Shown here: positions 1 through 18,950 of the stretch, in pieces
Numbering within the stretch: the first letter of the stretch is position 1
Layout of the letters: every line of letters begins with the position of its first letter
IMG/VR virus record: IMGVR_UViG_2609459857_000004
Span: 1 to 31,179 of that record
Strand: one strand, 5' to 3'
Source: a virus
Lineage: Duplodnaviria > Heunggongvirae > Uroviricota > Caudoviricetes
Length of the DNA stretch: 31,179 bases
Position numbers and translations under genes: made by a program
The notes under the pieces: model-generated
Database searches by the model: none
Seen by the model: only the letters and a program-made list of their open reading frames with translations
Told to the model about the DNA's origin: nothing

Positions 1-1020
1 CTACTTACTGACCACAAGCGGTAAATCCAGTGTTGGGGTGATTTTGGTTTTACGATCGTAAATCAACACCTGATTTTCTGTTTTGTGTCCACTGAAAATT
101 TGTTTGTCGCGACTGCTGCCTTCGTAATCTGAAATCCCTTTGGCTTTTATGTCATGGAAGTTGCACCCAAACGGAACGCCGGCTTTTTGCTCGGCTGCAC
201 GTTTAGCCTGATTCCACCAGTTGTTCAGCGTCTTGGCTATTACCTTCCCGCCTTTGGTTGTGTTGATCACATACTCGCATGTGCCGGAAGATACATTTCG
301 GGCTAACTGGATCGCCGTACGTAATCGCGGAGACCATTCCTTGATTTGTTTAGTGCCGGTCTTGTTTTGCTCAATGTAAATCCCTTTATCCATAATATCC
401 TGCCATTTCAGCTCGAGTACATCACCGAGCCTTGCCGCACAAAGATAGGATATCTCCATTGCAATACGTAACTGTGGAATTGCTTCCGCATATATTGCAG
501 CATACTGTTTATCGGTGATGTAAACAGTACGGGCTTTAAGTGTGAATTTTCTGACTCCTTTGCATGGATTATTTTTCACATACCCACGCTCATATCCCCA
601 TCCGTATACACGGCTCAGACTTGCCAGTTCATGGTTTGCCTGGGTCTTGCTCTCAAGTCCTCGCTTATCCATGAAAATTCTTACCTGTTCAATTTTTACA
701 TTATCAGCAAGCACTTTTCCGAATACTGCCAACAATGCCCTTTGATGTTGCCGATAATCTTTTTGGGTTCGGGGGGCCAGTTCTGTAAATGCAGGGGAGT
801 CCATAAACATGTGCCATAATTTAGCGACGGTCATTATGTCGTGGAGTTTTGCTTTTTCCAGCTCATAATTTTGCCAGACTTTAGCTACGCTGGTTTCCCG
901 CACTCTTCCGAGCCCTATAGTTCTTGTGCTTCCTTCGGGTTTCCATACGTAACTGTAACCATTCGATCTAACACGCGGTGGTAGTGCATTATCTTTTTTG
1001 TTTTTTCTTGGTCTTCCCAT
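1..1020 (-). CDS. int: phage integrase (tyrosine recombinase)
   Basis: 339-aa ORF whose stop codon is the first 3 nt of the window; C-terminal region has an LIYDR-type tyrosine motif typical of tyrosine recombinases; small xis-like ORF overlaps its 5' end. Confidence 0.8.
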   Translation of the reverse strand: MGRPRKNKKDNALPPRVRSNGYSYVWKPEGSTRTIGLGRVRETSVAKVWQNYELEKAKLHDIMTVAKLWHMFMDSPAFTELAPRTQKDYRQHQRALLAVFGKVLADNVKIEQVRIFMDKRGLESKTQANHELASLSRVYGWGYERGYVKNNPCKGVRKFTLKARTVYITDKQYAAIYAEAIPQLRIAMEISYLCAARLGDVLELKWQDIMDKGIYIEQNKTGTKQIKEWSPRLRTAIQLARNVSSGTCEYVINTTKGGKVIAKTLNNWWNQAKRAAEQKAGVPFGCNFHDIKAKGISDYEGSSRDKQIFSGHKTENQVLIYDRKTKITPTLDLPLVVSK

Positions 1021-1240
1021 TGTTCAGCGCCTCAAAATCGGGTTCAGCAGAAACCAGTTCAGATACTTTCGACATTGCTGTCAGCCCGTGCGGAACATCC
1101 CGGCGAAGAACTATTGGTTCGTTTTTAGGTCCGATTACAAACGGGATGCCGTGCAGCCTTAGCTGGTGTTGCTGTCTTGTGTATCGCTCGTATCTTGTGA
1201 TCTCTTGAATCTCTGCTGGCGATAGAGTTAATTCGTACAT
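989..1240 (-). CDS. putative excisionase / recombination directionality factor
   Basis: 83-aa basic ORF immediately upstream of int, overlapping the int start by 32 nt (classic xis-int arrangement); assigned by position and size, not lambda-Xis-like in sequence. Confidence 0.4.
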   Translation of the reverse strand: MYELTLSPAEIQEITRYERYTRQQHQLRLHGIPFVIGPKNEPIVLRRDVPHGLTAMSKVSELVSAEPDFEALNNGKTKKKQKR

Positions 1241-1306
1241 GTGGTCACGTGCCTTACAGCATGACCGCCGCCAATATAATTCGGAGGCGGCGATCAGGGT
1301 TGAACA

Positions 1307-3763
1307 TTAAAAATCAACCGGATTCGGGATCAATTTTTGCCAGATTGCTGAAACGTATTTTGCCTGGTGATTGGCGTCATCCAGTGCATTGTGGGGTACA
1401 CCTTCGAACGGGATAGCTGTTCTGGCATCAAAACCGATGGTTTTTCCCAGTTCAACAATTGTGCGCACGTCGCGATCGTTGCAGTAACGCCACGGGCAGG
1501 GGATCCCCTGCCGTTCATATGAACGGCGTAAAATTGCGTTGTCGAAAGTTGCACCATTGCCCCATACCTGCACGAATTTTTCATCTGAATGCTCGCTGAT
1601 GAATTCCCTGAATTGCAGCAGCGCATCATCTAATGGGATTTGATTTACCAAAATTGCAGATCTGACCTCGCTGGACTGCACCAGCCACCATTCGATTGTG
1701 CTTATGTCGACAGTGCCGCCACCGGTTTTTGCATCAATCGTTTTGCTGAACTCCGGCCCCATCTCTCCGGTTTCGGGATCAAAAAATTTACCGCCAATAG
1801 AGTTGATTGGTGCATCAGGGTTTGTTCCCATCGTTTCAAGGTCGACCGAAAGATGATTCCATACTCTGCTGGTGGATGTGATAACGTGATGACTGTTCAC
1901 CGTAATTAAGGGATCCGCCGTCTCGCCAGTTTCACTATCGCTGGCGTTGTCCTGAGCGCTGCCAGCATTCTCCTTGTGTGGATGTTCAGCGCCTTCCATT
2001 TCCTCCGGATCATTTTCCTGAACTTCAACCTGATTCTCTTCATTGAATGTTTCCTGGTATGTTGCGTCGCCCATCACCGCGCCACAATCAGGGCAGTTGC
2101 CGCCACCGCTCTGACCGCAGGCGGTGCAGACTTTTTCCGGTTCCTGTTGCGCTACTGGTTCGGATTGTTTCGTTTCTGGCTCGTTTTGTAACGCATTTGA
2201 GCTGTTTTGTTCCTCTTTCTGGTCGTTCTGTTCCGTTTCTTGCTGGTTCTGGTTCACAGAATCGCGGGTTTCAATCCCCTTCACCCATTTCGGATCATTC
2301 GGGTCGCTAATCCCTGCAACAAATTCACCGCGAGAGGCCGCAAGCAACTTATCGGCGTCAGGCTGGCTGATATTGGCTGCCTGCATAATTTTGTTTACTT
2401 CGTCAGCGGTAACTTTTACCTGATTAACTGGATCTATCTGTGCCTGAGCATCCAGCGATTGCGTGTCCTGGCGATGTTCAGTTGTATCCGGTTCCATTGT
2501 TTCAGCCGTTGCCTGTTCATCTGCCATTGCGTCAGACGGTTGTGATTTTTCCTCATTATTTTTTTCTTCTTCTGTCTCGCGTTCAGCAGCCAGTTCGCGG
2601 TTAACTTCTTCCAGGATATCTTTTTCCGGTGTATGTCGTGCAGCAGCGAGAGTTTCCTCGGTAGGGTTCTCGTGATCAGTCTCCGTTAAATAGGCGTTGA
2701 TATACCCCTGAAGGCGTCCCGGGTAATGATAAAACTCAGGGTGTGCGCTCCGGATAAGTGCAAAAATAGCGGCGCGGGAATAATCCAGGATACCCGGGAT
2801 TGCGCGAAGTGCTGCGGACCATTCTTTGAACGGACTTTCTTTCTTCTGGACGACTTCTTTTGCGCGACGATAAACGCTGCCCGGAATTTCATAAATATTA
2901 AAATCCATCGGAAGTGTGGCCGCTGCAATCTCCACATCCAGCGTATCGAAGGTGTGTACTAAATTCGGATTGCGATCGGTTTTGTTCCCTCCACCGGCAT
3001 TAGCGCCGGAAGCCGTGCGGGTGATACGAGAAACACGATTTCCTTTCATCCACTCTTTTGTCAGCAGACCGCGATCGGTGTAGTCAGCGCCCAGGTATGC
3101 TTCGAAAAAAGCAGTCATTAGCCCCAGGCCTGAATTGCCAGGATTAGGGAAAACTTTGTCAGTATCACGCACCAGTTTGTGGAGATCGCGAATTTCCAGT
3201 GGATCGAGCAGACTGGTTTTATGCGAAATAGCGAGGGCAGTAACAGCTGGTAGTTCTTCAGCCCGTGCAATGTGTAATGCCTGGAGTTCGTCGCGTGAAA
3301 CGTGCGTTACCGGTTTTTCGCTGCCACGTTGAGCAAGCCAGCGAATGGGCAGTTCCTGACCGGAAACCGGCAGGAGCATGTTCTCCTCAATCTCAGCCAT
3401 GTCTTCGCCGTTGACGTTGGTATTGTCAGTGCTGGCTGGTTTATCCTGAACAGAGGGCGAGGGCGCGATAAGTACCATTGTGATACCATCTTCTCCGCCT
3501 TTTTCGTATCGGTTGCAGAATTCGGTATCAAACACGCCTTCCGGAGGAAGGTCATTCACAACGGGTAAATGGACGCGAACAGGTTTTTTAAAATCCTCTT
3601 CGTCAAATCCGGCATCGTCCATTGCGACAACACCGCGTGATATTGCAACCGATAATTTTTTTGCTGTGCGCCAGTAAAAACCGCCTTTAATCCCAAGACG
3701 TTTTCTGACTTTGTCATTTTTGGCTTCGTAATATAGTGCAATTTCTTCTTTATCAGCGCTCAT
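1307..3763 (-). CDS. RecE-like prophage exonuclease with C-terminal DEDDh (DnaQ-like) 3'-5' exonuclease domain
   Basis: 818-aa ORF with RBS GAGG upstream of ATG; C-terminal ~190 aa carry Exo I (VDLETMG), Exo II ([11 protein letters not shown]) and Exo III (HNALDDA) motifs; N-terminal region recalled as RecE-like, with an acidic low-complexity E/Q/N-rich linker. Confidence 0.65.
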
Positions 3764-3853
3764 TGATAAACCTCATAACCATTTTTAGGGTGAACAAGTC
3801 CCTGCCATTGCTGGCATATAAAAATAAAACCGGATATTTATTACGGTGCTGGT

Positions 3854-4045
3854 TTAAAGCCCTGCCGGGACTTCGTTATTATCCATGCGAATAACTTTAT
3901 CGACCGGATAACAGTTACCGGGAATTTTCTGTTCCGCTGCGGCAGCCATGCATTCTTTCATTGAGCTGTATACGCCAGTAACCGTGTCAACCGGTTCGCC
4001 GGAAACAAGAAAAACCGTCAGAACAAGTGCAAATGTGGTATTCAT
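3854..4045 (-). CDS. small secreted/membrane-anchored hypothetical protein
   Basis: 63 aa from internal ATG (MNTTFALVLTVFLVSG...), hydrophobic N-terminal signal-like segment; ATGA start/stop overlap with upstream ORF. Confidence 0.45.
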   Translation of the reverse strand: MNTTFALVLTVFLVSGEPVDTVTGVYSSMKECMAAAAEQKIPGNCYPVDKVIRMDNNEVPAGL

Positions 4046-4230
4046 TGCCAGTATCCTTTTTGCATCAGACGTAAACGGGCCAGCATTGAAACAATGCATA
4101 TTTGATTTAATAACTCCCGTTCGTGTTTTCTCTTATTAATGGCATCTTCAGTAAATGCAGGGTTACTGATACTGACACCAATTTCAAAACAACCTTCAGA
4201 CGTATTAACGTTTGGTAATAATGTTTCCAT
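4042..4230 (-). CDS. hypothetical early-operon protein
   Basis: 62-aa ORF with GAGGA RBS 8 nt upstream of ATG; translationally coupled to the next ORF. Confidence 0.45.
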   Translation of the reverse strand: METLLPNVNTSEGCFEIGVSISNPAFTEDAINKRKHERELLNQICIVSMLARLRLMQKGYWQ

Positions 4231-4796
4231 TATCGCGTCCTCAACAATGAATTTTGTGATGCGGTGCCTGGTGCCTCCAGGTGACGTTAACCAGTTAACA
4301 ATTAACGCCGGAATACAGGGAAACCAACTCCATAAAACAAATACGGAGTACCGATCACTTTTTTAACTGTTCCGCGTGCGCTGAGCCGCATTCACCGCAT
4401 CACAAAATTCACTTTAAAAAGGGCGGACATCAGCCAGCAATGAAACTGATGCCGCCAAAAGGTAATCAACATGGGTTGTTGCAGCGGGGTTGTCACTTAA
4501 GCGTATGGTCAACCTGACAACCCGGTGTTATCTCGAGGAAAGGATAGCCTCGCCATACTTACCGCCGCGCCATTTCGCGGAGTGCCACAACCGGAAGCGC
4601 ACGGTCGAATTAAATTTAACGACACCGTACAGTGAGACGAACTTCGCCGTGCGCTTTCGCGTTATGCCCTGACTTTTCAGGGATATATCCTTTCAGTAAA
4701 CTGTCAGTGCCGGATGCTCACCCGTGTCCGGCGCACGACCACACGTGGCAGCGTGTTGGTCTCCATTTTTAACCCAGAACCCAAATGGAGGATAAA

Positions 4797-5027
4797 ATGT
4801 CAGAACAATTTAACCCCCTGCGGAGACCTGCCTCAGCAGCACAACAAGTCGTGCTTGAAGTTGTTCGCGCGGGTAAGTTGTACGAAAAACACAACTTTCT
4901 GAACTTTTTACACACATGCTTGACCATTACCGTGCTGAGGCGAAACGCCTGGAGCAGGAAAATAAAGCTCAATAAAAGCTGCTTTAATGATCTGAGCCAG
5001 TATGATTGCTGGCTCTTTTTGTGTTGA
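4797..5027 (+). CDS. hypothetical small protein (possible opposite-strand moron)
   Basis: ATG preceded by GGAGGA at 8 nt; ORF ends just after a plus-strand intrinsic terminator; overlaps convergent minus-strand ORF 4908..5105, so only one may be real. Confidence 0.3.
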   Translation: MSEQFNPLRRPASAAQQVVLEVVRAGKLYEKHNFLNFLHTCLTITVLRRNAWSRKIKLNKSCFNDLSQYDCWLFLC

Positions 5028-5105
5028 ATCCAGGTCTGCTAATTTTTGACGAAGACAGTCTGCAGCTATAACCTGCAAATCTGCAGGTAAATCTTTAAAT
5101 TCCAT
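4908..5105 (-). CDS. hypothetical small protein
   Basis: 65-aa ORF with GAGG RBS 8 nt upstream; N-terminal 45 aa look protein-like; 3' end overlaps the plus-strand ORF and terminator. Confidence 0.3.
   Translation of the reverse strand: MEFKDLPADLQVIAADCLRQKLADLDSTQKEPAIILAQIIKAAFIELYFPAPGVSPQHGNGQACV
4994..5022 (+). terminator. rho-independent terminator (plus strand)
   Basis: 7-bp stem GAGCCAG/CTGGCTC with 8-nt loop followed by TTTTTGTGTT. Confidence 0.5.
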
Positions 5106-5127
5106 TATTAGCCTCGTTGGTTAGCTA

Positions 5128-5346
5128 TTAACGCGGGTATGTAATCATTCTGGCAATGCTTAATGCCGCTGCTTTTTCCAGCTTGGTTATATCTTTTTCC
5201 AGAGCGGACAGATTTTCAGCCTGCTTAGCCCTGGCTTCATTGGCCCATTTCAGATCCTGCGCTGCATTAATTTTCTGGCGCATCCACTCATAAAGTTCAT
5301 CATCGGTATAGTCTGGCGCGATGATGACGGGTTCTCGTTTCTGCAT
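5128..5346 (-). CDS. hypothetical early-operon protein
   Basis: 72-aa ORF, GAGGA RBS 7 nt upstream of ATG, charged helical composition. Confidence 0.45.
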   Translation of the reverse strand: MQKREPVIIAPDYTDDELYEWMRQKINAAQDLKWANEARAKQAENLSALEKDITKLEKAAALSIARMITYPR

Positions 5347-5375
5347 ACTGATTCCTCGCGGTGCTGCTTCGCTTA

Positions 5376-5504
5376 TCAGCCGTTAGATTTTGCCGAGCTG
5401 GAAAGCGCCTGTTTAAACTCACTGAAGCTGAGAGCTTCTTCGCCTTCGGCAAGGCCTTCGAAGTATTCTTCGTAAGCCTTTTCCATGATTGCGTCGAAAT
5501 CCAT
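5376..5504 (-). CDS. hypothetical small acidic protein (42 aa)
   Basis: ATG 5504 lies 2 nt downstream of the stop of the preceding 51-aa ORF (TGATATGG junction); the track's 98-aa reading in this frame has a poorly spaced RBS. Confidence 0.3.
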   Translation of the reverse strand: MDFDAIMEKAYEEYFEGLAEGEEALSFSEFKQALSSSAKSNG

Positions 5505-5505
5505 A

Positions 5506-5661
5506 TCACTCACCTGAATTTCTTTCCAGCCAGCGACGCGCGCCAGATTCGGTTTTAAACGTTTTGCTTTTGGTATACGTCGTCGCGGTGAATGTGCCGT
5601 CCTGGTTGGGAAACACGCCACACACCAGAGATTCGTTGTTGCCAAGATCGATAGTATCCAT
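5506..5661 (-). CDS. hypothetical small protein (51 aa), first gene of leftward operon
   Basis: ATG 5661 with GAGG RBS 6 nt upstream; below the 60-aa cutoff of the track; translated manually (MDTIDLGNNESLVCGVF...). Confidence 0.35.
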   Translation of the reverse strand: MDTIDLGNNESLVCGVFPNQDGTFTATTYTKSKTFKTESGARRWLERNSGE

Positions 5662-5728
5662 GTTGACCTCATTTCCCCTTAACGCCGGGGTAGCGGAACT
5701 TTAGCCTGACAACGATGCGGTTCGTTGA

Positions 5729-5780
5729 TGGAATTACTTTACAATAATTACTTTCATTGTCAAGTGTTGATTGAAAGAAA
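5729..5780 (-). promoter_or_regulatory. candidate leftward early promoter (pL-like) with operator motif TTGAAAGAAA
   Basis: On the minus strand TTGACA (5763..5758), 16-nt spacer, TAAAGT (5741..5736); operator-like TTGAAAGAAA at 5771-5780 directly upstream. Confidence 0.4.
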
Positions 5781-5836
5781 TGCTGAAAGCAGCCGTATGA
5801 CTGCTTAGATAGATATGAGGAGACTGTGCTTAGGAA

Positions 5837-6253
5837 TTATTTCTGGTGGGACTGAATCATGCTCAAGACATCGCCTTTGAGTTGCTCCAGTTCTTCTATC
5901 TGAGATTTAATAGAAATAAGCAAGCGTAGTTTTTCTGTTTCCGGTAACTGATTGAAAAGTGAAAGCAAAAGCTTTTCATTGTCATCCAGTTCTCGTCCGG
6001 AAAAAGTCTCAGCATGAAGCTCCCCCTGTGCTGTTGAATCTGGTGACATGAAAAACCAGTGTTCTGCTTTACCTGCTGCCGCGGCTAGGCGTTTTAGCCC
6101 TTGCCCTCTGGGAAGAGATTTACCTTTAGCCCATTGCTGGACGGCTTGCGGAGATACCATCGCGTGCTTGGCTATGTCGGATAAGTTCCAGTTTTTTTCG
6201 TCCTGCAACAGCTTTAGGCGGTAAACAAGATTTGGGTGTTTTACGTTGTCCAT
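5837..6253 (-). CDS. prophage repressor, HTH XRE-family (DicA/CI-like, no peptidase domain)
   Basis: 138-aa ORF with N-terminal HTH-like segment (LSDIAKHAMVSPQAVQQWAKGKSLP); divergent from a Cro-like gene across an operator-bearing intergenic region; no strong SD. Confidence 0.75.
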   Translation of the reverse strand: MDNVKHPNLVYRLKLLQDEKNWNLSDIAKHAMVSPQAVQQWAKGKSLPRGQGLKRLAAAAGKAEHWFFMSPDSTAQGELHAETFSGRELDDNEKLLLSLFNQLPETEKLRLLISIKSQIEELEQLKGDVLSMIQSHQK

Positions 6254-6361
6254 TTAGTCATTTTACAAGCTTTGCTTTCATATGGCATTGGAATTGTTTT
6301 AATGTTGCTATTGAAAGAAAATCTTTTTTGATGTAGAAATTCTTTCAATATGGAGGTGTAA
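6254..6361. promoter_or_regulatory. immunity switch region: divergent promoters and operators
   Basis: TTGAAAGAA (6311-6319) and inverted copy TTCTTTCAA (6340-6348) flank a candidate rightward promoter TTGAAA-17-TAGAAA; GGAGG RBS precedes the Cro-like ATG at 6362. Confidence 0.55.
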
Positions 6362-6640
6362 ATGAGTCACGTTTTGAAAAGCAAGATTACGAAAATCATG
6401 AATCAATCAGAAATTGCTAAACATCTAGGAGTTAAGTCTCAGGCTGTAAGTGGATGGCTCAACTTCACTGGGGTTATACCAGCAGATCGAGTCATTCCAT
6501 TGAGTCGAGTTCTTGACTGGCAAGTTACTCCCCACGAACTTCGCCCTGACATTTATCCCAACCCAACAGATGGACTACCTTGTGAAAATAAGTGTATGTC
6601 GAATGAATCACTGGCGGTGAACAATGATATTCACTCCTGA
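6362..6640 (+). CDS. Cro-like / YdaS-family HTH regulator
   Basis: 92-aa ORF with GGAGG RBS; HTH-like SEIAKHLGVKSQAVSGW and an ELRPDI motif recalled from YdaS-type Cro proteins; divergent from the repressor. Confidence 0.65.
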   Translation: MSHVLKSKITKIMNQSEIAKHLGVKSQAVSGWLNFTGVIPADRVIPLSRVLDWQVTPHELRPDIYPNPTDGLPCENKCMSNESLAVNNDIHS

Positions 6641-10639: not shown

Positions 10640-10957
10640 TTAACAGATTGACTGAATTCCGTTTTTCTCAACCACAGAAAGCAAACGAAGGGCAGGGCCA
10701 CCAGGGCGCTTTATTCCCCTTTCCCAGTCTGAAATGAGGTTTTTACTGACATTAAGATATCTGGCGAAAACAGGTTGAGACAGATGCTCGCGCTCGCGAA
10801 GTGCCCGGATTCTTTCTGGCGACATTGTTGGCGCTGGTTGCAGACAAAGTTCATCAAACTCTCTCATAGTTTGTTTTGTTACTGCGCCAATATCCTGAAG
10901 TGACTCCATCATTTCATGTACGGATGCAAGCGCATCACTGCGGTAATTTTTACTCAT
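10640..10957 (-). CDS. higA: HigA-2-like antitoxin (C-terminal HTH)
   Basis: 105-aa ORF; C-terminal HTH (LSQPVFARYLNVSKNLISDWERG); ATG overlaps the toxin stop (ATGAGTAA), GGAGGT RBS inside the toxin 3' end; toxin-first gene order. Confidence 0.7.
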   Translation of the reverse strand: MSKNYRSDALASVHEMMESLQDIGAVTKQTMREFDELCLQPAPTMSPERIRALREREHLSQPVFARYLNVSKNLISDWERGIKRPGGPALRLLSVVEKNGIQSIC

Positions 10958-11333
10958 TGGGTACCTCCGTAAACTGACCCTGCAGGATCAATTGCGCCAG
11001 TTGTTCATCAGTAAGATTGAGAACGTGATGCGCAGCTTTTCGAAATGCGTTTTCCTCGATGGTTGTAATATTTTCTCTCTCATTCTTTGCGTACGCATAG
11101 ATGAAAAAAGCCTTTTCTGCGACGCGGTAAAAAATTATTGTCCTATAACCGCCTGATTTACCGCCACCTCTTCGGGCTAATCGCTGCTTAATGACACCAC
11201 TACCCAAATCTGCGGATATGAGTCCCTTATCAGCTAGTTCCACGACTTCTCGCAGAGCTTTATTGGAAATCCGATTTTTTCGTGCGAAGCGTTCAAACCA
11301 GGCATTTTTGAAAATGCGCATGTTTGGTTCCAT
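10950..11333 (-). CDS. higB: HigB-2 / RelE-like type II toxin
   Basis: Motifs GSGVIKQRLARRGGGKSGGYRTIIFY...FFIYAYAKNE match the recalled HigB-2 family pattern; start ambiguous (GTG 11360, ATG 11333, ATG 11321), none with a clear SD. Confidence 0.7.
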   Translation of the reverse strand: MEPNMRIFKNAWFERFARKNRISNKALREVVELADKGLISADLGSGVIKQRLARRGGGKSGGYRTIIFYRVAEKAFFIYAYAKNERENITTIEENAFRKAAHHVLNLTDEQLAQLILQGQFTEVPNE

Positions 11334-11423
11334 ATCGTTGTGTAATACATAGTGTGACACAATTAAATAGGATGGGCAATATACATACAGGGGGGCTTGC
11401 TAAGGGATGGCAGCTCAAAAAAC

Positions 11424-12141: not shown

Positions 12142-13191
12142 GTGAGGGTATTAGTGACTCCTGAAATTGCTCACCGTCTGGGGATTGTACTTTTCAGGCC
12201 CGGTCCTGATGCGATGCCTTTGTTTATGCAGGGGCGTGTGCTGGTGGAGCCGGAACCAAAAAGCATGCGAGGTCTGCCATCCGGAGTCGTTCCTGCCGTT
12301 CGCCAGCCGCTGGCGGAAGACAAATCTCTGCTGCCATTTTTCAGCGATGAGCGGGTGATTCGCGCTGCTGGCGGTGCTGGTGCACTGTCTGACTGGCTAT
12401 TGCGCCACGTTAAATCCTGCCAGTGGCCTCATGGTGACTACCATCACAGCGAAACCGTCATACATCGTTATGGTGCTGGCGCGATGGTGTTGTGCTGGCA
12501 CTGCGACAACCAGCTGCGTGACCAGACATCCGAATCACTCGGGCAACTTGCTCATCAAAACCTGTCTGCATGGATGATTGACGTCATCCGTCACGCAATG
12601 AATGGCACACAGGAGCGGGAATTATCGCTGGCTGAATTGTACTGCTGGGCTGCTGTAAATGATGTAGTGGATGCCATGACCGAAAATATGGCGCGTCGAA
12701 TCCTGAAGCTTCCGGGGGAAAAAATCCACTCAGTATACCGCGAATGCGACATCATACCGGGAGAACAGACAGCCACCAGCATACTGAAGCAGCGCACAAA
12801 AAATATTGTGCTACCGCCTCACGCCCACCAGCAACAGAACCCACCACAGGAAAAGACGGTGGTCAGCATTGCCGTTGATCCGGAGTCTCCTGAATCTTTC
12901 ATGAAGCGACCTAAACGTCGCCGCTGGGTTAACGAAAAGTACACGCGCTGGGTTAAGACACAGCCGTGTGCATGTTGTGGTAAGCCAGCCGACGATCCCC
13001 ATCACCTGATTGGTCACGGTCAGGGAGGGATGGGGACAAAAGCCCACGATATTTTCACGCTACCGCTGTGCCGGGAGCATCACAATGAACTTCATGCTGA
13101 TCCGCTGGCATTTGAAGAAAAGCATGGTTCCCAGATTGATTTAATTTTTCGTTTTCTTGATCACGCCTTTGCAACCGGCGTGCTCGGGTAA
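12142..13191 (+). CDS. DUF968 (YdfU-like) protein with C-terminal HNH/zinc-finger-like motif
   Basis: 349-aa ORF, GTG start with GGAGG RBS; C-terminal CACCGK...HHLIGHG...CREHHNELH motif; NinG/YdfU-position gene upstream of rusA. Confidence 0.6.
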   Translation: MRVLVTPEIAHRLGIVLFRPGPDAMPLFMQGRVLVEPEPKSMRGLPSGVVPAVRQPLAEDKSLLPFFSDERVIRAAGGAGALSDWLLRHVKSCQWPHGDYHHSETVIHRYGAGAMVLCWHCDNQLRDQTSESLGQLAHQNLSAWMIDVIRHAMNGTQERELSLAELYCWAAVNDVVDAMTENMARRILKLPGEKIHSVYRECDIIPGEQTATSILKQRTKNIVLPPHAHQQQNPPQEKTVVSIAVDPESPESFMKRPKRRRWVNEKYTRWVKTQPCACCGKPADDPHHLIGHGQGGMGTKAHDIFTLPLCREHHNELHADPLAFEEKHGSQIDLIFRFLDHAFATGVLG

Positions 13192-13203
13192 AAGAGGTTA
13201 CTG

Positions 13204-13563
13204 ATGCGTATAGAGTTTGTTTTGCCTTACCCGCCGACGGTGAACACCTACTGGCGACGTCGTGGCAGTACATATTTTGTATCAAAAGCCGGTGAGCGTT
13301 ATCGCCGTGATGTGGCGCTCATTGTTCGCCAGCAGCGACTGAGATTAAACCTGTCCGGAAGGCTGGCAATAAAAATTACTGCAGAGCCACCGGATAAGCG
13401 CCGCCGTGACCTGGACAATATTCTGAAAGCACCACTGGATGCGTTGACGCATGCGGGGTTGCTTATCGACGACGAGCAGTTTGATGAAATCAATATTGTG
13501 CGCGGTCAGGTCGTTCCTGGTGGTCGGTTGGGCGTGAAGATTTACAAAATTGAAAGTGAGTGA
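13204..13563 (+). CDS. rusA: Holliday junction resolvase RusA
   Basis: 119 aa; matches recalled RusA features (LPYPPTVNTYW, DRRRRDLDN, GGRL...) and size. Confidence 0.85.
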   Translation: MRIEFVLPYPPTVNTYWRRRGSTYFVSKAGERYRRDVALIVRQQRLRLNLSGRLAIKITAEPPDKRRRDLDNILKAPLDALTHAGLLIDDEQFDEINIVRGQVVPGGRLGVKIYKIESE

Positions 13564-14126
13564 GCGTAAATATGATATACCCGGAAATTACAGGCAAAAG
13601 CGGTGAGCATTTACGCCTGAAAACGCTGGAAAGTGTCTGGCTCCAGGGGAAACTGCGTATGTGGGGGCGTTGGTCGTATATTGGCGGCGGTAAGACGGGA
13701 AATATGTTCAACCAATTACTGACCTCTAAAAAGCTGACAAAAACGGCAATTAACGAGGCGCTCCGGAGGATGAAAAAAGCGGGTCTGGACAAACCTGAAC
13801 TTGAGGCTTTTTTGCGGGATATGATCAACGGCAATCAAAAAAGCTGGCTGGCACATTGTACCGATTCAGAGGCGTTAATAATCGACAGGGTTATTGGTGA
13901 AGCCCTGGCCGGTTATCCCGGGCTGCTCAATGTCCTGAGTCAGCGTTATGTGGGGCGGGGGATGACTAAGCGCAAAATGGCTGAACTGCTGAATGATGCA
14001 CACCCGGAATGGAGTTTAAGAACCTGTGAAAGACGCATTGAGCATTGGCTAAAGGTGGCAGAATTTATTTTGTACAAACCAATGGTTATGGCTTTTGGTA
14101 TAGAGAAAAAAGTTATTGCTTTTTGA
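13560..14126 (+). CDS. putative late-gene antiterminator (Q-like by position)
   Basis: 188-aa ORF after rusA, followed by a promoter-like TTGACG and an intrinsic terminator; no lambda-Q zinc finger; start GTG 13560 or ATG 13572. Confidence 0.4.
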   Translation: MSVNMIYPEITGKSGEHLRLKTLESVWLQGKLRMWGRWSYIGGGKTGNMFNQLLTSKKLTKTAINEALRRMKKAGLDKPELEAFLRDMINGNQKSWLAHCTDSEALIIDRVIGEALAGYPGLLNVLSQRYVGRGMTKRKMAELLNDAHPEWSLRTCERRIEHWLKVAEFILYKPMVMAFGIEKKVIAF

Positions 14127-14699: not shown

Positions 14700-15746
14700 A
14701 TGGCTAATACTGTAAAAATATCCAGTCGTGAGTTAATCAACGCTGATTGCCTGGAATTTATCCAGACCTTACCGGAAAACTCTGTCGATCTGATAGTCAC
14801 AGACCCGCCATACTTTAAAGTGAAGCCCGAGGGCTGGGATAATCAGTGGAAGGGTGACGATGATTACCTGAAATGGCTGGACCAGTGTCTGGCGCAATTC
14901 TGGCGGGTACTGAAGCCTGCCGGAAGTCTTTATCTGTTCTGTGGTCATCGCCTGGCATCTGATATCGAAATCATGATGCGTGAACGCTTTAATGTGCTGA
15001 ACCACATTATCTGGGCGAAGCCGTCCGGACGCTGGAACGGATGCAACAAGGAAAGCCTGCGGGCGTATTTCCCGGCAACAGAACGCATTCTGTTTGCAGA
15101 ACATTATCAGGGGCCATACCAGCCCAAAAATGACGGCTATGCGGCAAAGGGGCGCGAGCTAAAACAGCACGTCATGGCCCCGCTGATTTCTTACTTTCGT
15201 GATGCGCGTGAATCACTGGGAATAACGTCAAAACAGATAGCGGAAGCCACCGGAAAGAAAAACATGGCTTCGCACTGGTTTGGTACCAGTCAGTGGCAGT
15301 TGCCGAACGAAGGCGATTATCTGAAATTACAGGCGTTGTTTGCGCGTGTTGCAGCAGAAAAACATCAGCGCGGTGAACTGGAAAAGCCACACCACCAGCT
15401 GGTCAGCACATACAGTGAACTGAACCGGCAATATGCCAGCCTGCTGGATGAGTACAAATCTCTGCGGCGTTATTTTTCCGTATCGGCTGCCGTTCCGTAT
15501 ACGGATGTCTGGACGCACAAGCCTGTGCAGTATTACCCCGGCAAACATCCCTGTGAGAAACCGGCGGATATGTTGCGTCAGATAATTACCGCCAGCAGCC
15601 ATCCGGGAGATTTGGTTGCTGATTTTTTTATGGGGTCGGGATCAACAATAAAAGCAGCATTATCGCTGGGACGGCATGCAATAGGTGTGGAGCTGGAAGA
15701 AGAGAGATTTAACCAGACTGTAAGCGAAATAAAAGAAAATAGTTAA
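14700..15746 (+). CDS. orphan DNA methyltransferase (N6-adenine/N4-cytosine amino-MTase, beta-class order)
   Basis: 348 aa; DPPY catalytic motif near N-terminus and FxGxG (FFMGSGST) AdoMet motif near C-terminus; no adjacent restriction endonuclease gene. Confidence 0.8.
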   Translation: MANTVKISSRELINADCLEFIQTLPENSVDLIVTDPPYFKVKPEGWDNQWKGDDDYLKWLDQCLAQFWRVLKPAGSLYLFCGHRLASDIEIMMRERFNVLNHIIWAKPSGRWNGCNKESLRAYFPATERILFAEHYQGPYQPKNDGYAAKGRELKQHVMAPLISYFRDARESLGITSKQIAEATGKKNMASHWFGTSQWQLPNEGDYLKLQALFARVAAEKHQRGELEKPHHQLVSTYSELNRQYASLLDEYKSLRRYFSVSAAVPYTDVWTHKPVQYYPGKHPCEKPADMLRQIITASSHPGDLVADFFMGSGSTIKAALSLGRHAIGVELEEERFNQTVSEIKENS

Positions 15747-15927: not shown

Positions 15928-16000
15928 GCCGATTTAACTTAGCAGACAAAGCAACTGACTTGTAATCACCGGGTCGCCAGTTCGATTCCGGTAATCGGCA
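15928..16000 (+). tRNA. tRNA-like gene, anticodon UGU (Thr) with weak D and anticodon stems (possible pseudo-tRNA)
   Basis: 7-bp acceptor stem GCCGATT/AATCGGC, T-loop TTCGATT, anticodon loop CTTGTAA at canonical positions 32-38; anticodon stem only 3 of 5 pairs; followed by CTA not CCA. Confidence 0.4.
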
Positions 16001-16006
16001 CTATAT

Positions 16007-16081
<75 letters not shown>

Positions 16082-18599: not shown

Positions 18600-18950
18600 A
18601 TGCCATCACGAATCCCCCGCACATGCCGTAAACGTGGATGTGCAGGTACAACCACAGACAGTTCTGGTTACTGCGATAAACATCGTGGTGAAGGATGGGC
18701 ACAGCATCAACGCGGACTGAGCCGCCACCAGCGCGGCTATGGCTCAAAATGGACGGTGATTCGTGCCCGTCTTCTGAAGCGCGATAAAGGTCTGTGTCAG
18801 TTGTGTCTGCGTGTCGGTGTGGTGAGCGAGGCGAAAACCGTCGACCACATCATCCCGAAAGCGCATGGCGGGACAGACGCAGACAGCAACCTGCAGAGTC
18901 TGTGCTGGCCCTGCCACAAAGCGAAAACAGCGCGTGAACGAATAAAGTGA
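18600..18950 (+). CDS. HNH endonuclease (packaging-associated)
   Basis: 116 aa; HNH motif DHIIPKAHGG...N...CWPCH; sits immediately upstream of the terminase genes. Confidence 0.8.
   Translation: MPSRIPRTCRKRGCAGTTTDSSGYCDKHRGEGWAQHQRGLSRHQRGYGSKWTVIRARLLKRDKGLCQLCLRVGVVSEAKTVDHIIPKAHGGTDADSNLQSLCWPCHKAKTARERIK

Follow-up and report, generated by a model that had tools for sequence, protein, structure and literature searches.

The stretch of DNA analysed here, called the window throughout, comprises the 31,179 nucleotides of the IMG/VR virus record IMGVR_UViG_2609459857_000004 (Caudoviricetes). At 1307-3763 on the minus strand, its list of open reading frames (ORFs) contains a gene with an ATG start that encodes a protein of 818 amino acids (aa), exactly at the coordinates that had been given in an earlier note on this DNA. 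That note described the gene as a RecE-like N-terminal region fused to a DEDDh 3'-5' exonuclease, with no annealase partner nearby. A domain search of the kind that the note had proposed placed Pfam family PF06630 in the N-terminal and PF16473 in the C-terminal part, and BLASTP aligned the former to RecE of Escherichia coli K-12. The gene is thereby confirmed as a RecE N-terminal module fused to a DEDDh domain of the DexA type, and its features are as follows.

1307..3763, minus strand: whole 818-aa ORF, RecE-type N-terminal module plus DEDDh exonuclease domain (ORF list; Pfam PF06630 and PF16473)
3197..3598, minus strand: Exonuc_VIII (PF06630) segment, aa 56-189 (Pfam, E 7.6e-35; aligns to K-12 RecE)
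2654..3196, minus strand: aa 190-370, the part of the N-terminal module most widely kept in distant relatives (cluster representatives)
1904..2653, minus strand: acidic, Q/N-rich region common with RecE, aa 371-620 (composition; aligned to RecE aa 347-592)
2264-2383, minus strand: conserved island in the acidic region, aa 461-500
2084..2128, minus strand: CxxC-x7-CxxC knuckle, putative zinc-binding, aa 546-560 (also in K-12 RecE)
1901..1906, minus strand: mosaic junction at codons 620/621, end of the Rac recE homology (BLASTP, DNA alignment)
1340..1858, minus strand: DEDDh (DnaQ-like) domain of the Rv2179c/DexA family, aa 636-808 (Pfam PF16473)
1835-1843, minus strand: Exo I, D641/E643
1541-1543, minus strand: Exo II, D741
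1376-1393, minus strand: Exo III, H791/D796

Comparison with K-12 RecE showed 59% identity between ORF aa 58-621 and RecE aa 50-592, with no similarity beyond ORF aa 621 (BLASTP). The NCBIfam profile for exodeoxyribonuclease VIII (NF007259) is covered by the ORF only at positions 1-603 of 877, and its equivalog cutoff is not reached (940 bits vs 1269). K-12 RecE is composed of PF06630 and the PD-(D/E)xK family PF12684, the latter at aa 615-850, and no PF12684 match is present in the ORF (Pfam). In a review of the enzyme the RecE nuclease domain was placed at residues 564-866 and the N-terminal part was called a domain 'of unknown function' (PMC11611040). Residues 190-370 of the ORF belong to no Pfam family and have no solved homologue, as a profile search of PDB sequences with the N-terminal core (aa 190-400) gave nothing below E 0.2. 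In many cluster representatives at 50% identity, the best-matching stretch lies within about aa 190-400.

The acidic region between the two parts, which the earlier note had taken for a long low-complexity linker, is real as far as its composition is concerned, with 24% D+E, 7% K+R and a net charge of -41 over aa 371-620. It is not, however, a spacer created by the fusion, as it is homologous to RecE aa 347-592 (BLASTP) and belongs to the conserved RecE N-terminal region. Nor is it featureless, since it holds both the conserved island and the cysteine knuckle, whose counterpart in the alignment to RecE is CNACGQTGGDNCPDC. Of the four cysteines of the knuckle, C549, C557 and C560 do not vary among the sampled sequences, and 21 of these 24 also have C546.

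The C-terminal match to PF16473 (Rv2179c-like) spans the complete profile (positions 1-177 of 177) with an E-value of 2.1e-63 and a score of 213.6 bits against a gathering cutoff of 27. All five DEDDh residues are present and align to those of the phage T4 exonuclease DexA, in which D641 and E643 correspond to D7 and E9, D741 to the Exo II aspartate, and H791 and D796 to H186 and D191; these five residues are invariant in 24 sampled homologues. The complete Exo I, II and III motifs that had been predicted are therefore intact, and the domain search, which could have revealed a PD-(D/E)xK nuclease instead, gives DEDDh. DexA (PDB ID: 8KEL) is the best hit, and the only solved relative detectable by sequence; no other exonuclease chain was returned by the PDB sequence search even with E-values up to 1. 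DexA is likewise a member of PF16473, is 31% identical to the ORF domain by pairwise alignment, and is a 3'-5' DNA exonuclease (PMC12153337). From this family membership, a 3'-5' polarity is predicted for the ORF domain. The two proteins differ in that DexA is a stand-alone protein of 227 aa with extra loops, encoded by a virulent phage, whereas the ORF domain forms the tail of a fusion. In addition, DexA residues W152 and D169, which have been proposed to recognise 5-hydroxymethylcytosine (5hmC), are not conserved and align to C761 and F778. The founding member of PF16473, the family matched by ORF aa 636-808, is Rv2179c of Mycobacterium tuberculosis; it differs in being a chromosomal single-domain RNA exonuclease, and its chain did not appear in the PDB search with E up to 1.

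Domains of the PF16473 type occur in 710 phage records from many genera. The closest stand-alone homologues (mEpX2 gp32 and Salmonella phage c341 gp29) are 182 aa long and 56-58% identical to the ORF domain. The mEpX2 protein, at 58% identity over 179 aa, begins exactly at the domain boundary of the ORF (NHLMVDLETMG), and both are encoded by lambdoid early-left genes. The mEpX2-type exonuclease lacks the RecE N-terminus, while the window gene lacks the neighbours of the former, which lie in the order annealase (Erf/Rad52-type), single-stranded DNA-binding protein (SSB), exonuclease and Abc2. This neighbourhood is present in 73 of 80 IMG/VR loci of the stand-alone homologues, which ties their clade to DNA recombination and argues for a DNA rather than an RNA substrate. 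The nucleases of lambdoid Rec modules have been divided into four types, among them the DnaQ-like 3'-5' nucleases, to which the epsilon34-type 'DnaQ' nuclease belongs, and DnaQ-type nuclease genes near int have been reported in lambdoid phages (Genome Res 2025, PMC12315714).

The junction between the two parts is sharp. DNA homology to all 80 Rac-type recE loci retrieved from IMG/VR stops 2 nucleotides before codon 621, although these loci are nearly identical to K-12 Rac and count as roughly one event, and homology to RecE ends where the RecE nuclease region begins (codon 620/621). A database protein of 895 aa (P0088) has an N-terminus 96% identical to that of the ORF and a PF12684 tail, which indicates that the exchange of tails has been recent and modular. 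The N-terminal module has only 259 relatives among 1.84 billion cluster representatives at 50% identity and hence forms a narrow family. Among the 79 cluster representatives with at least 450 aa, the tail is of the PD-(D/E)xK type in 21, DEDDh in 14, a RecT-like stretch in one, and an unclustered long sequence in one, while 23 have little or no tail. The rest carry either a tail of about 265 aa that matches no Pfam family ('class X', phrog_2489/7838; 11 of the 79) or a shorter one ('class Y', phrog_26058; 8 of the 79). N-terminal identity among the representatives falls to about 32-47%, and the DEDDh and PD-(D/E)xK architectures must therefore both be long-lived.

Several forms of this family deserve separate description. 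Class X tails carry a KKSLTDAxKKALSxLGFxAD motif (P0128, P0182, P0198, P0203, P0206, P0227, P0256 and P0261), and in one member this motif coincides with a sub-threshold match to Rad52_Rad22 (E 0.005; 17.2 bits vs a cutoff of 20.3). An annealase attached to the N-terminal part of RecE is one conceivable identity of the class X tail; comparison by hhalign with RecT, Bet, Erf and the Rad52-like protein of mEpX2, and a PDB profile search, gave nothing. At locus L175 (9671-13449), a protein of 680 aa has the RecE N-terminus but no nuclease domain, and its tail (...LDWKRQVVIAAVYGLCANP...) resembles class Y; next after its gene come gamS, bet and exo, with 80-97% identity to the lambda genes. 'RecE-2' proteins without a nuclease domain were described in a 2025 survey (PMC12315714) and may correspond to such class Y-like, nuclease-less forms. 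A truncated form of 418 aa, with the same stop after about aa 415 and hence only the N-terminal part, recurs in about 10 related loci (L176, L177, L182, L184, L186, L189, L191, L192, L196 and similar); it could be a pseudogene allele that these loci have in common, or a short version that still functions. Loci L173, L185 and L203 encode proteins of about 1044-1050 aa with a RecE-like N-terminus, a divergent PD-(D/E)xK region and an insert, and no K-12-type recT is found near them.

Partner genes were searched for by tblastn with RecT, lambda Bet, P22 Erf, lambda Exo, the RecE C-terminus, Gam and Abc2. The 31-kb window contains no match to RecT, Bet, Erf, lambda Exo, Gam or Abc2, and none of 30 candidate ORFs scanned between 3854 and 21336 matched an annealase family (Pfam). 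The gene-neighbourhood survey for a distal annealase that had been suggested earlier gave the same picture. A scan of IMG/VR with the DEDDh domain yielded 80 loci, all of which have the RecE-like N-terminus (80/80), and annealase, lambda Exo, Gam and Abc2 genes occur in none of them (0/80), the stretch covered being at most 10 kb on the upstream side and, on the other, everything as far as the prophage end. In a scan with the N-terminal region, the 51 loci of the DEDDh subset, which overlap the former set in some contigs, are likewise free of annealase genes (0/51), as compared to recT in 84 of 86 loci of the PD-(D/E)xK (Rac-type recE) kind. The same fusion is encoded by the phages HannyBb (45 kb) and Tritos (46 kb), whose genome records are complete; its C-terminal domain is there 76% identical to that of the ORF, and RecT, Bet, Erf and lambda Exo are absent from the entire genomes of both. 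The claim that no annealase partner lies near the gene is thus upheld in the window, in both sets of loci and in the two complete phages, and the search for an annealase elsewhere in the operon, which would have spoken against it, found none.

The window gene therefore lacks the adjacent annealing-protein gene that characterises two-component systems such as RecET and Red. The RecE of Rac occupies the same position, close to xis-int where the leftward early operon ends, but has RecT as its partner and a C-terminal PD-(D/E)xK 5'-3' nuclease (RecE aa 615-850), and the window gene is without both. As to the departure from the RecET/Red module that had been claimed, the difference in partnership stands on these counts, and the difference in polarity is a prediction from the nuclease family. 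Absence of an annealase is in itself ordinary for lambdoid prophages, about half of which are without one: 134 of 275 lambdoid (pro)phages had no annealase and all 134 also had no RecBCD inhibitor, as summarised in PMC12315714 (Bobay 2013, PMC3784561). In another lambdoid panel, 22% had no Rec module (PMC12315714).

The neighbouring genes identify the locus as the leftward early (dicB) operon of an E. coli prophage that is lambdoid and resembles Qin and Rac.

1..1020, minus strand: integrase ORF at the left prophage end (ORF list, related annotation)
989..1240, minus strand: excisionase-like ORF, immediately downstream (ORF list)
3854-4099, minus strand: DUF1482/YdfD-like ORF, upstream in the same leftward operon (Pfam DUF1482, E 1e-22)
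4042-4230, minus strand: dicB, upstream in the same leftward operon (Pfam DicB, E 2e-38)
5837-6253: helix-turn-helix (HTH) repressor, beyond the small ORFs upstream of dicB

Beyond the HTH repressor lies a divergent YdfS/cro-YdaT-replication region. On the side of the excisionase-like ORF, nothing fills the place where Rac has recT, and in the annotation of a related E. coli prophage, excisionase and exonuclease follow in the same order. Scans for promoters and terminators over 900-6500 gave results no better than those for shuffled sequence and are consequently uninformative on expression in the lysogen. The Chi octamer (GCTGGTGG) occurs 13 times in the window; shuffling gives an expectation of 1.08, and all 100 shuffled versions stayed below 13. 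The sites (1868, 9893, 10550, 12240, 12773, 12825, 14577, 15392, 16797, 17148, 18725, 21036 and 24568) are distributed over both strands, eight on the plus and five on the minus strand, and one of them is inside the DEDDh-coding region. The window fits the Chi-rich class of lambdoid phages without recombinase and RecBCD inhibitor (PMC12315714, PMC3784561).

Other features of the window were noted in passing. Between dicB and the small ORFs upstream of it, a dicF-like region (4426-4480, minus strand) is a good match to the dicF locus of K-12, terminator hairpin included, with 10 nucleotides of the DicF 5' part missing and a differing stem; dicF was not called by Rfam at gathering thresholds. 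A terminator-like hairpin is located at 4453-4426. A RelE-family toxin gene (PF06296, E 3e-46) and an adjacent gene for an HTH_3 protein, at 10640-11360 on the minus strand of the early-right region, are likely to form a toxin-antitoxin pair. Genes for a DUF968 protein (weak HNH-like match), a RusA resolvase and a Q-like antiterminator follow each other and precede an N6/N4 DNA methylase gene (PF01555, E 4e-45), at 12142-14126 and 14700-15746. Between the methylase and the lysis genes, Rfam calls two tRNAs on the plus strand (15928-16000 and 16007-16078), and ARAGORN supports only the second, as tRNA-Gly(UCC) at 16007-16081. Just ahead of the two terminase genes, small and large, comes an HNH endonuclease ORF (E 2e-16; 18600-18950, plus strand), an arrangement known for HNH-assisted packaging.

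Selection was examined in 24 of the 88 distinct full-length sequences from viral loci. The median ratio of nonsynonymous to synonymous substitution rates (dN/dS) is 0.31 for the N-terminal aa 1-370, 0.39 for the acidic region (aa 371-620) and 0.17 for the DEDDh domain (aa 621-818). The low value in the domain, along with the invariant catalytic residues, indicates that it is maintained by purifying selection. The gene is also common. DNA of the DEDDh domain is present in 4222 of 5426 complete E. coli genomes (78%), the median copy number being 2 and the highest 8, and at least 80% of the whole gene is matched in 1273 complete E. coli genomes. The whole gene is at best 93% identical in DNA to complete E. 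coli RefSeq genomes, the allele of the window being rare among finished genomes, and yet draft E. coli assemblies encode proteins of the same length (818 aa) that agree with the 620-aa N-terminal query at every residue (100% identity).

More than 8000 close relatives are found under the names 'exonuclease', '3'-5' exoribonuclease (domain-containing protein)' and 'exodeoxyribonuclease VIII', the combination of PF06630 and PF16473 is precomputed for database relatives, and PHROGs holds full-length families (phrog_2082 and phrog_20376). The architecture is thus already catalogued and the gene class was noted in 2025 (PMC12315714), so that the novelty implied by the earlier note was overstated. 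A limited literature search, which did not extend to the supplements of PMC12315714, found no paper that explicitly describes or tests a RecE-N/DEDDh fusion. The K-12 pseudogenes exoD (DLP12) and ydfE (Qin) were considered as remnants of the gene and rejected, as BLASTP found no similarity.

Taken together, we favour, at a probability of roughly 60%, a reading in which the protein is a 3'-5' DNA exonuclease that is borne by a RecE N-terminal module and works without a partner, as an accessory to the host RecBCD-RecA pathway and not as a recombinase of the RecET/Red type. The mosaic early-left gene has kept the RecE N-terminal module of about 620 aa, with a DexA/Rv2179c DEDDh domain in place of the 5'-3' PD-(D/E)xK nuclease region of RecE. 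The enzyme would act as a metal-dependent exonuclease that shortens DNA from its 3' ends and needs no annealase of its own, the RecE-type module may bring the nuclease to its substrate, and the phage would rely on host RecBCD, Chi and RecA for recombination. In this setting the enzyme may trim DNA 3' ends for the host pathway or degrade linear DNA. A wider and quite tentative idea is that the RecE N-terminal region is a portable module for targeting DNA ends or recombination, with interchangeable heads (PD-(D/E)xK with RecT, DEDDh, possibly a Rad52-like one, and none upstream of gam-bet-exo). The DEDDh fusion would on this idea provide annealase-independent end processing of opposite polarity that cooperates with host RecBCD-Chi-RecA in Chi-rich, recombinase-less lambdoid phages.

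Several points weigh against the accessory exonuclease reading. The Pfam family PF16473 owes its name to an exoribonuclease, and activity on RNA as well as DNA is frequent among DEDDh enzymes. AlphaFold2 modelling of the full protein, from an alignment of 27 sequences in which the homologues are all at least 89% identical, reached a mean predicted local distance difference test (pLDDT) score of only 32.7 and a predicted template modelling (pTM) score of 0.23, and for that reason the support for the reading comes from sequence comparison. The annealase queries were RecT, Bet and Erf in addition to Pfam, and an annealase of an unrecognised family could have escaped them. Exonucleases of 3'-5' polarity 'usually inhibit homologous recombination' (PMC12315714), so a positive role beside RecBCD-RecA is not obvious. 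A stand-alone DexA homologue of E. coli has moreover been reported as an anti-T4 defence (PMC12153337).

This last report leads to a different view of the gene, as a prophage exclusion or defence nuclease of the 'HREX' kind, in which a DexA-like enzyme would degrade incoming phage DNA, for example 5hmC-modified DNA, and so protect the lysogen. That some 78% of the complete E. coli genomes have the gene, frequently more than once, would suit such a function, as would the presence in the same operon (Pfam) of dicB, for which a role in phage protection has been described. The structure of DexA has been solved, bacterial DexA homologues are most prevalent in Escherichia (NAR 2025, PMC12153337), and the E. 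coli homologue EcD reportedly degrades T4 DNA and protects cells (PMC12153337). EcD is, like the window gene, a DexA homologue encoded in E. coli, but it is a different, stand-alone protein (starting MIDTET and ending TIPETY) and has lost the equivalent of D90. This loss, which gives a dimer-only form in which W152 and D169 are retained, is the signature of defence (PMC12153337), whereas the fusion keeps the residue as D713. The putative 5hmC-recognising residues of DexA are replaced in the ORF (W152 by C761 and D169 by F778), although the alignment is uncertain there, and PADLOC returned no match to a defence family. The gene sits at the far end of the leftward early operon beside xis-int, where it would normally be repressed in a lysogen, and its closest stand-alone homologues reside in recombination modules. 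A defence role therefore seems unlikely to us.

It is also conceivable, though rather improbable, that the protein resembles Rv2179c in being a 3'-5' exoribonuclease and trims or degrades RNA during lytic growth, its targets being for example transcripts of the host or the phage, or small RNAs. Against the Pfam family name, and the '3'-5' exoribonuclease' that NCBI often uses for these proteins, stands the fact that the sole solved relative by sequence, with no other at E up to 1, is a DNA exonuclease. The N-terminal partner moreover comes from a DNA recombination enzyme, and the stand-alone homologues are encoded between SSB and Abc2, beside an annealase. In favour of an RNA substrate, other bacterial DEDDh enzymes with auxiliary domains degrade phage RNA (PMC13344964). 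A recombination exonuclease that works with an unrecognised or distal annealase, or whose N-terminal module itself pairs or bridges DNA, with resection of opposite polarity, is in our view very unlikely. The class X tail of 265 aa with its Rad52/22 match (E 0.005) is suggestive of such a link, but the match is below threshold and without hhalign support. The nuclease-less form directly upstream of gamS-bet-exo (L175), the RusA encoded in the window, and the reported enhancement of linear-linear recombination by full-length RecE (PMC11611040) point in the same direction. Neither the window, the related loci nor the two whole phage genomes yielded an annealase, however, and 3'-5' resection leaves 5' tails, which are not used by known annealases or for RecA loading. 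As for a decaying, non-functional remnant of recombination between prophages, the truncated 418-aa versions in about 10 related loci and the defective state of many carrier prophages would be expected. The existence of 88 distinct intact full-length sequences, and of the gene in the complete genome records HannyBb and Tritos, speaks for the opposite, and the selection analysis (dN/dS of 0.17 in the nuclease domain, invariant catalytic residues) essentially excludes decay.

In other respects the gene is ordinary, being of a catalogued architecture and of a class noted in 2025, and sharing the lack of an annealase with many lambdoid prophages. Its significance lies in what it says about RecE, in which the role of the first ~600 residues has been unexplained since the description of the enzyme (PMC11611040). 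The gene shows that the RecE N-terminal region is an independent conserved module, which has been joined to nucleases of opposite polarity, the 3'-5' polarity on the DEDDh side being a prediction, and to tails that are not nucleases. Such natural domain-swap variants provide material for testing the module. For annotation, the label 'exodeoxyribonuclease VIII' is often wrong: thousands of the E. coli prophage genes that bear it are no equivalents of RecE, and should not be counted as RecET in surveys of phage recombination or in searches for recombineering tools.

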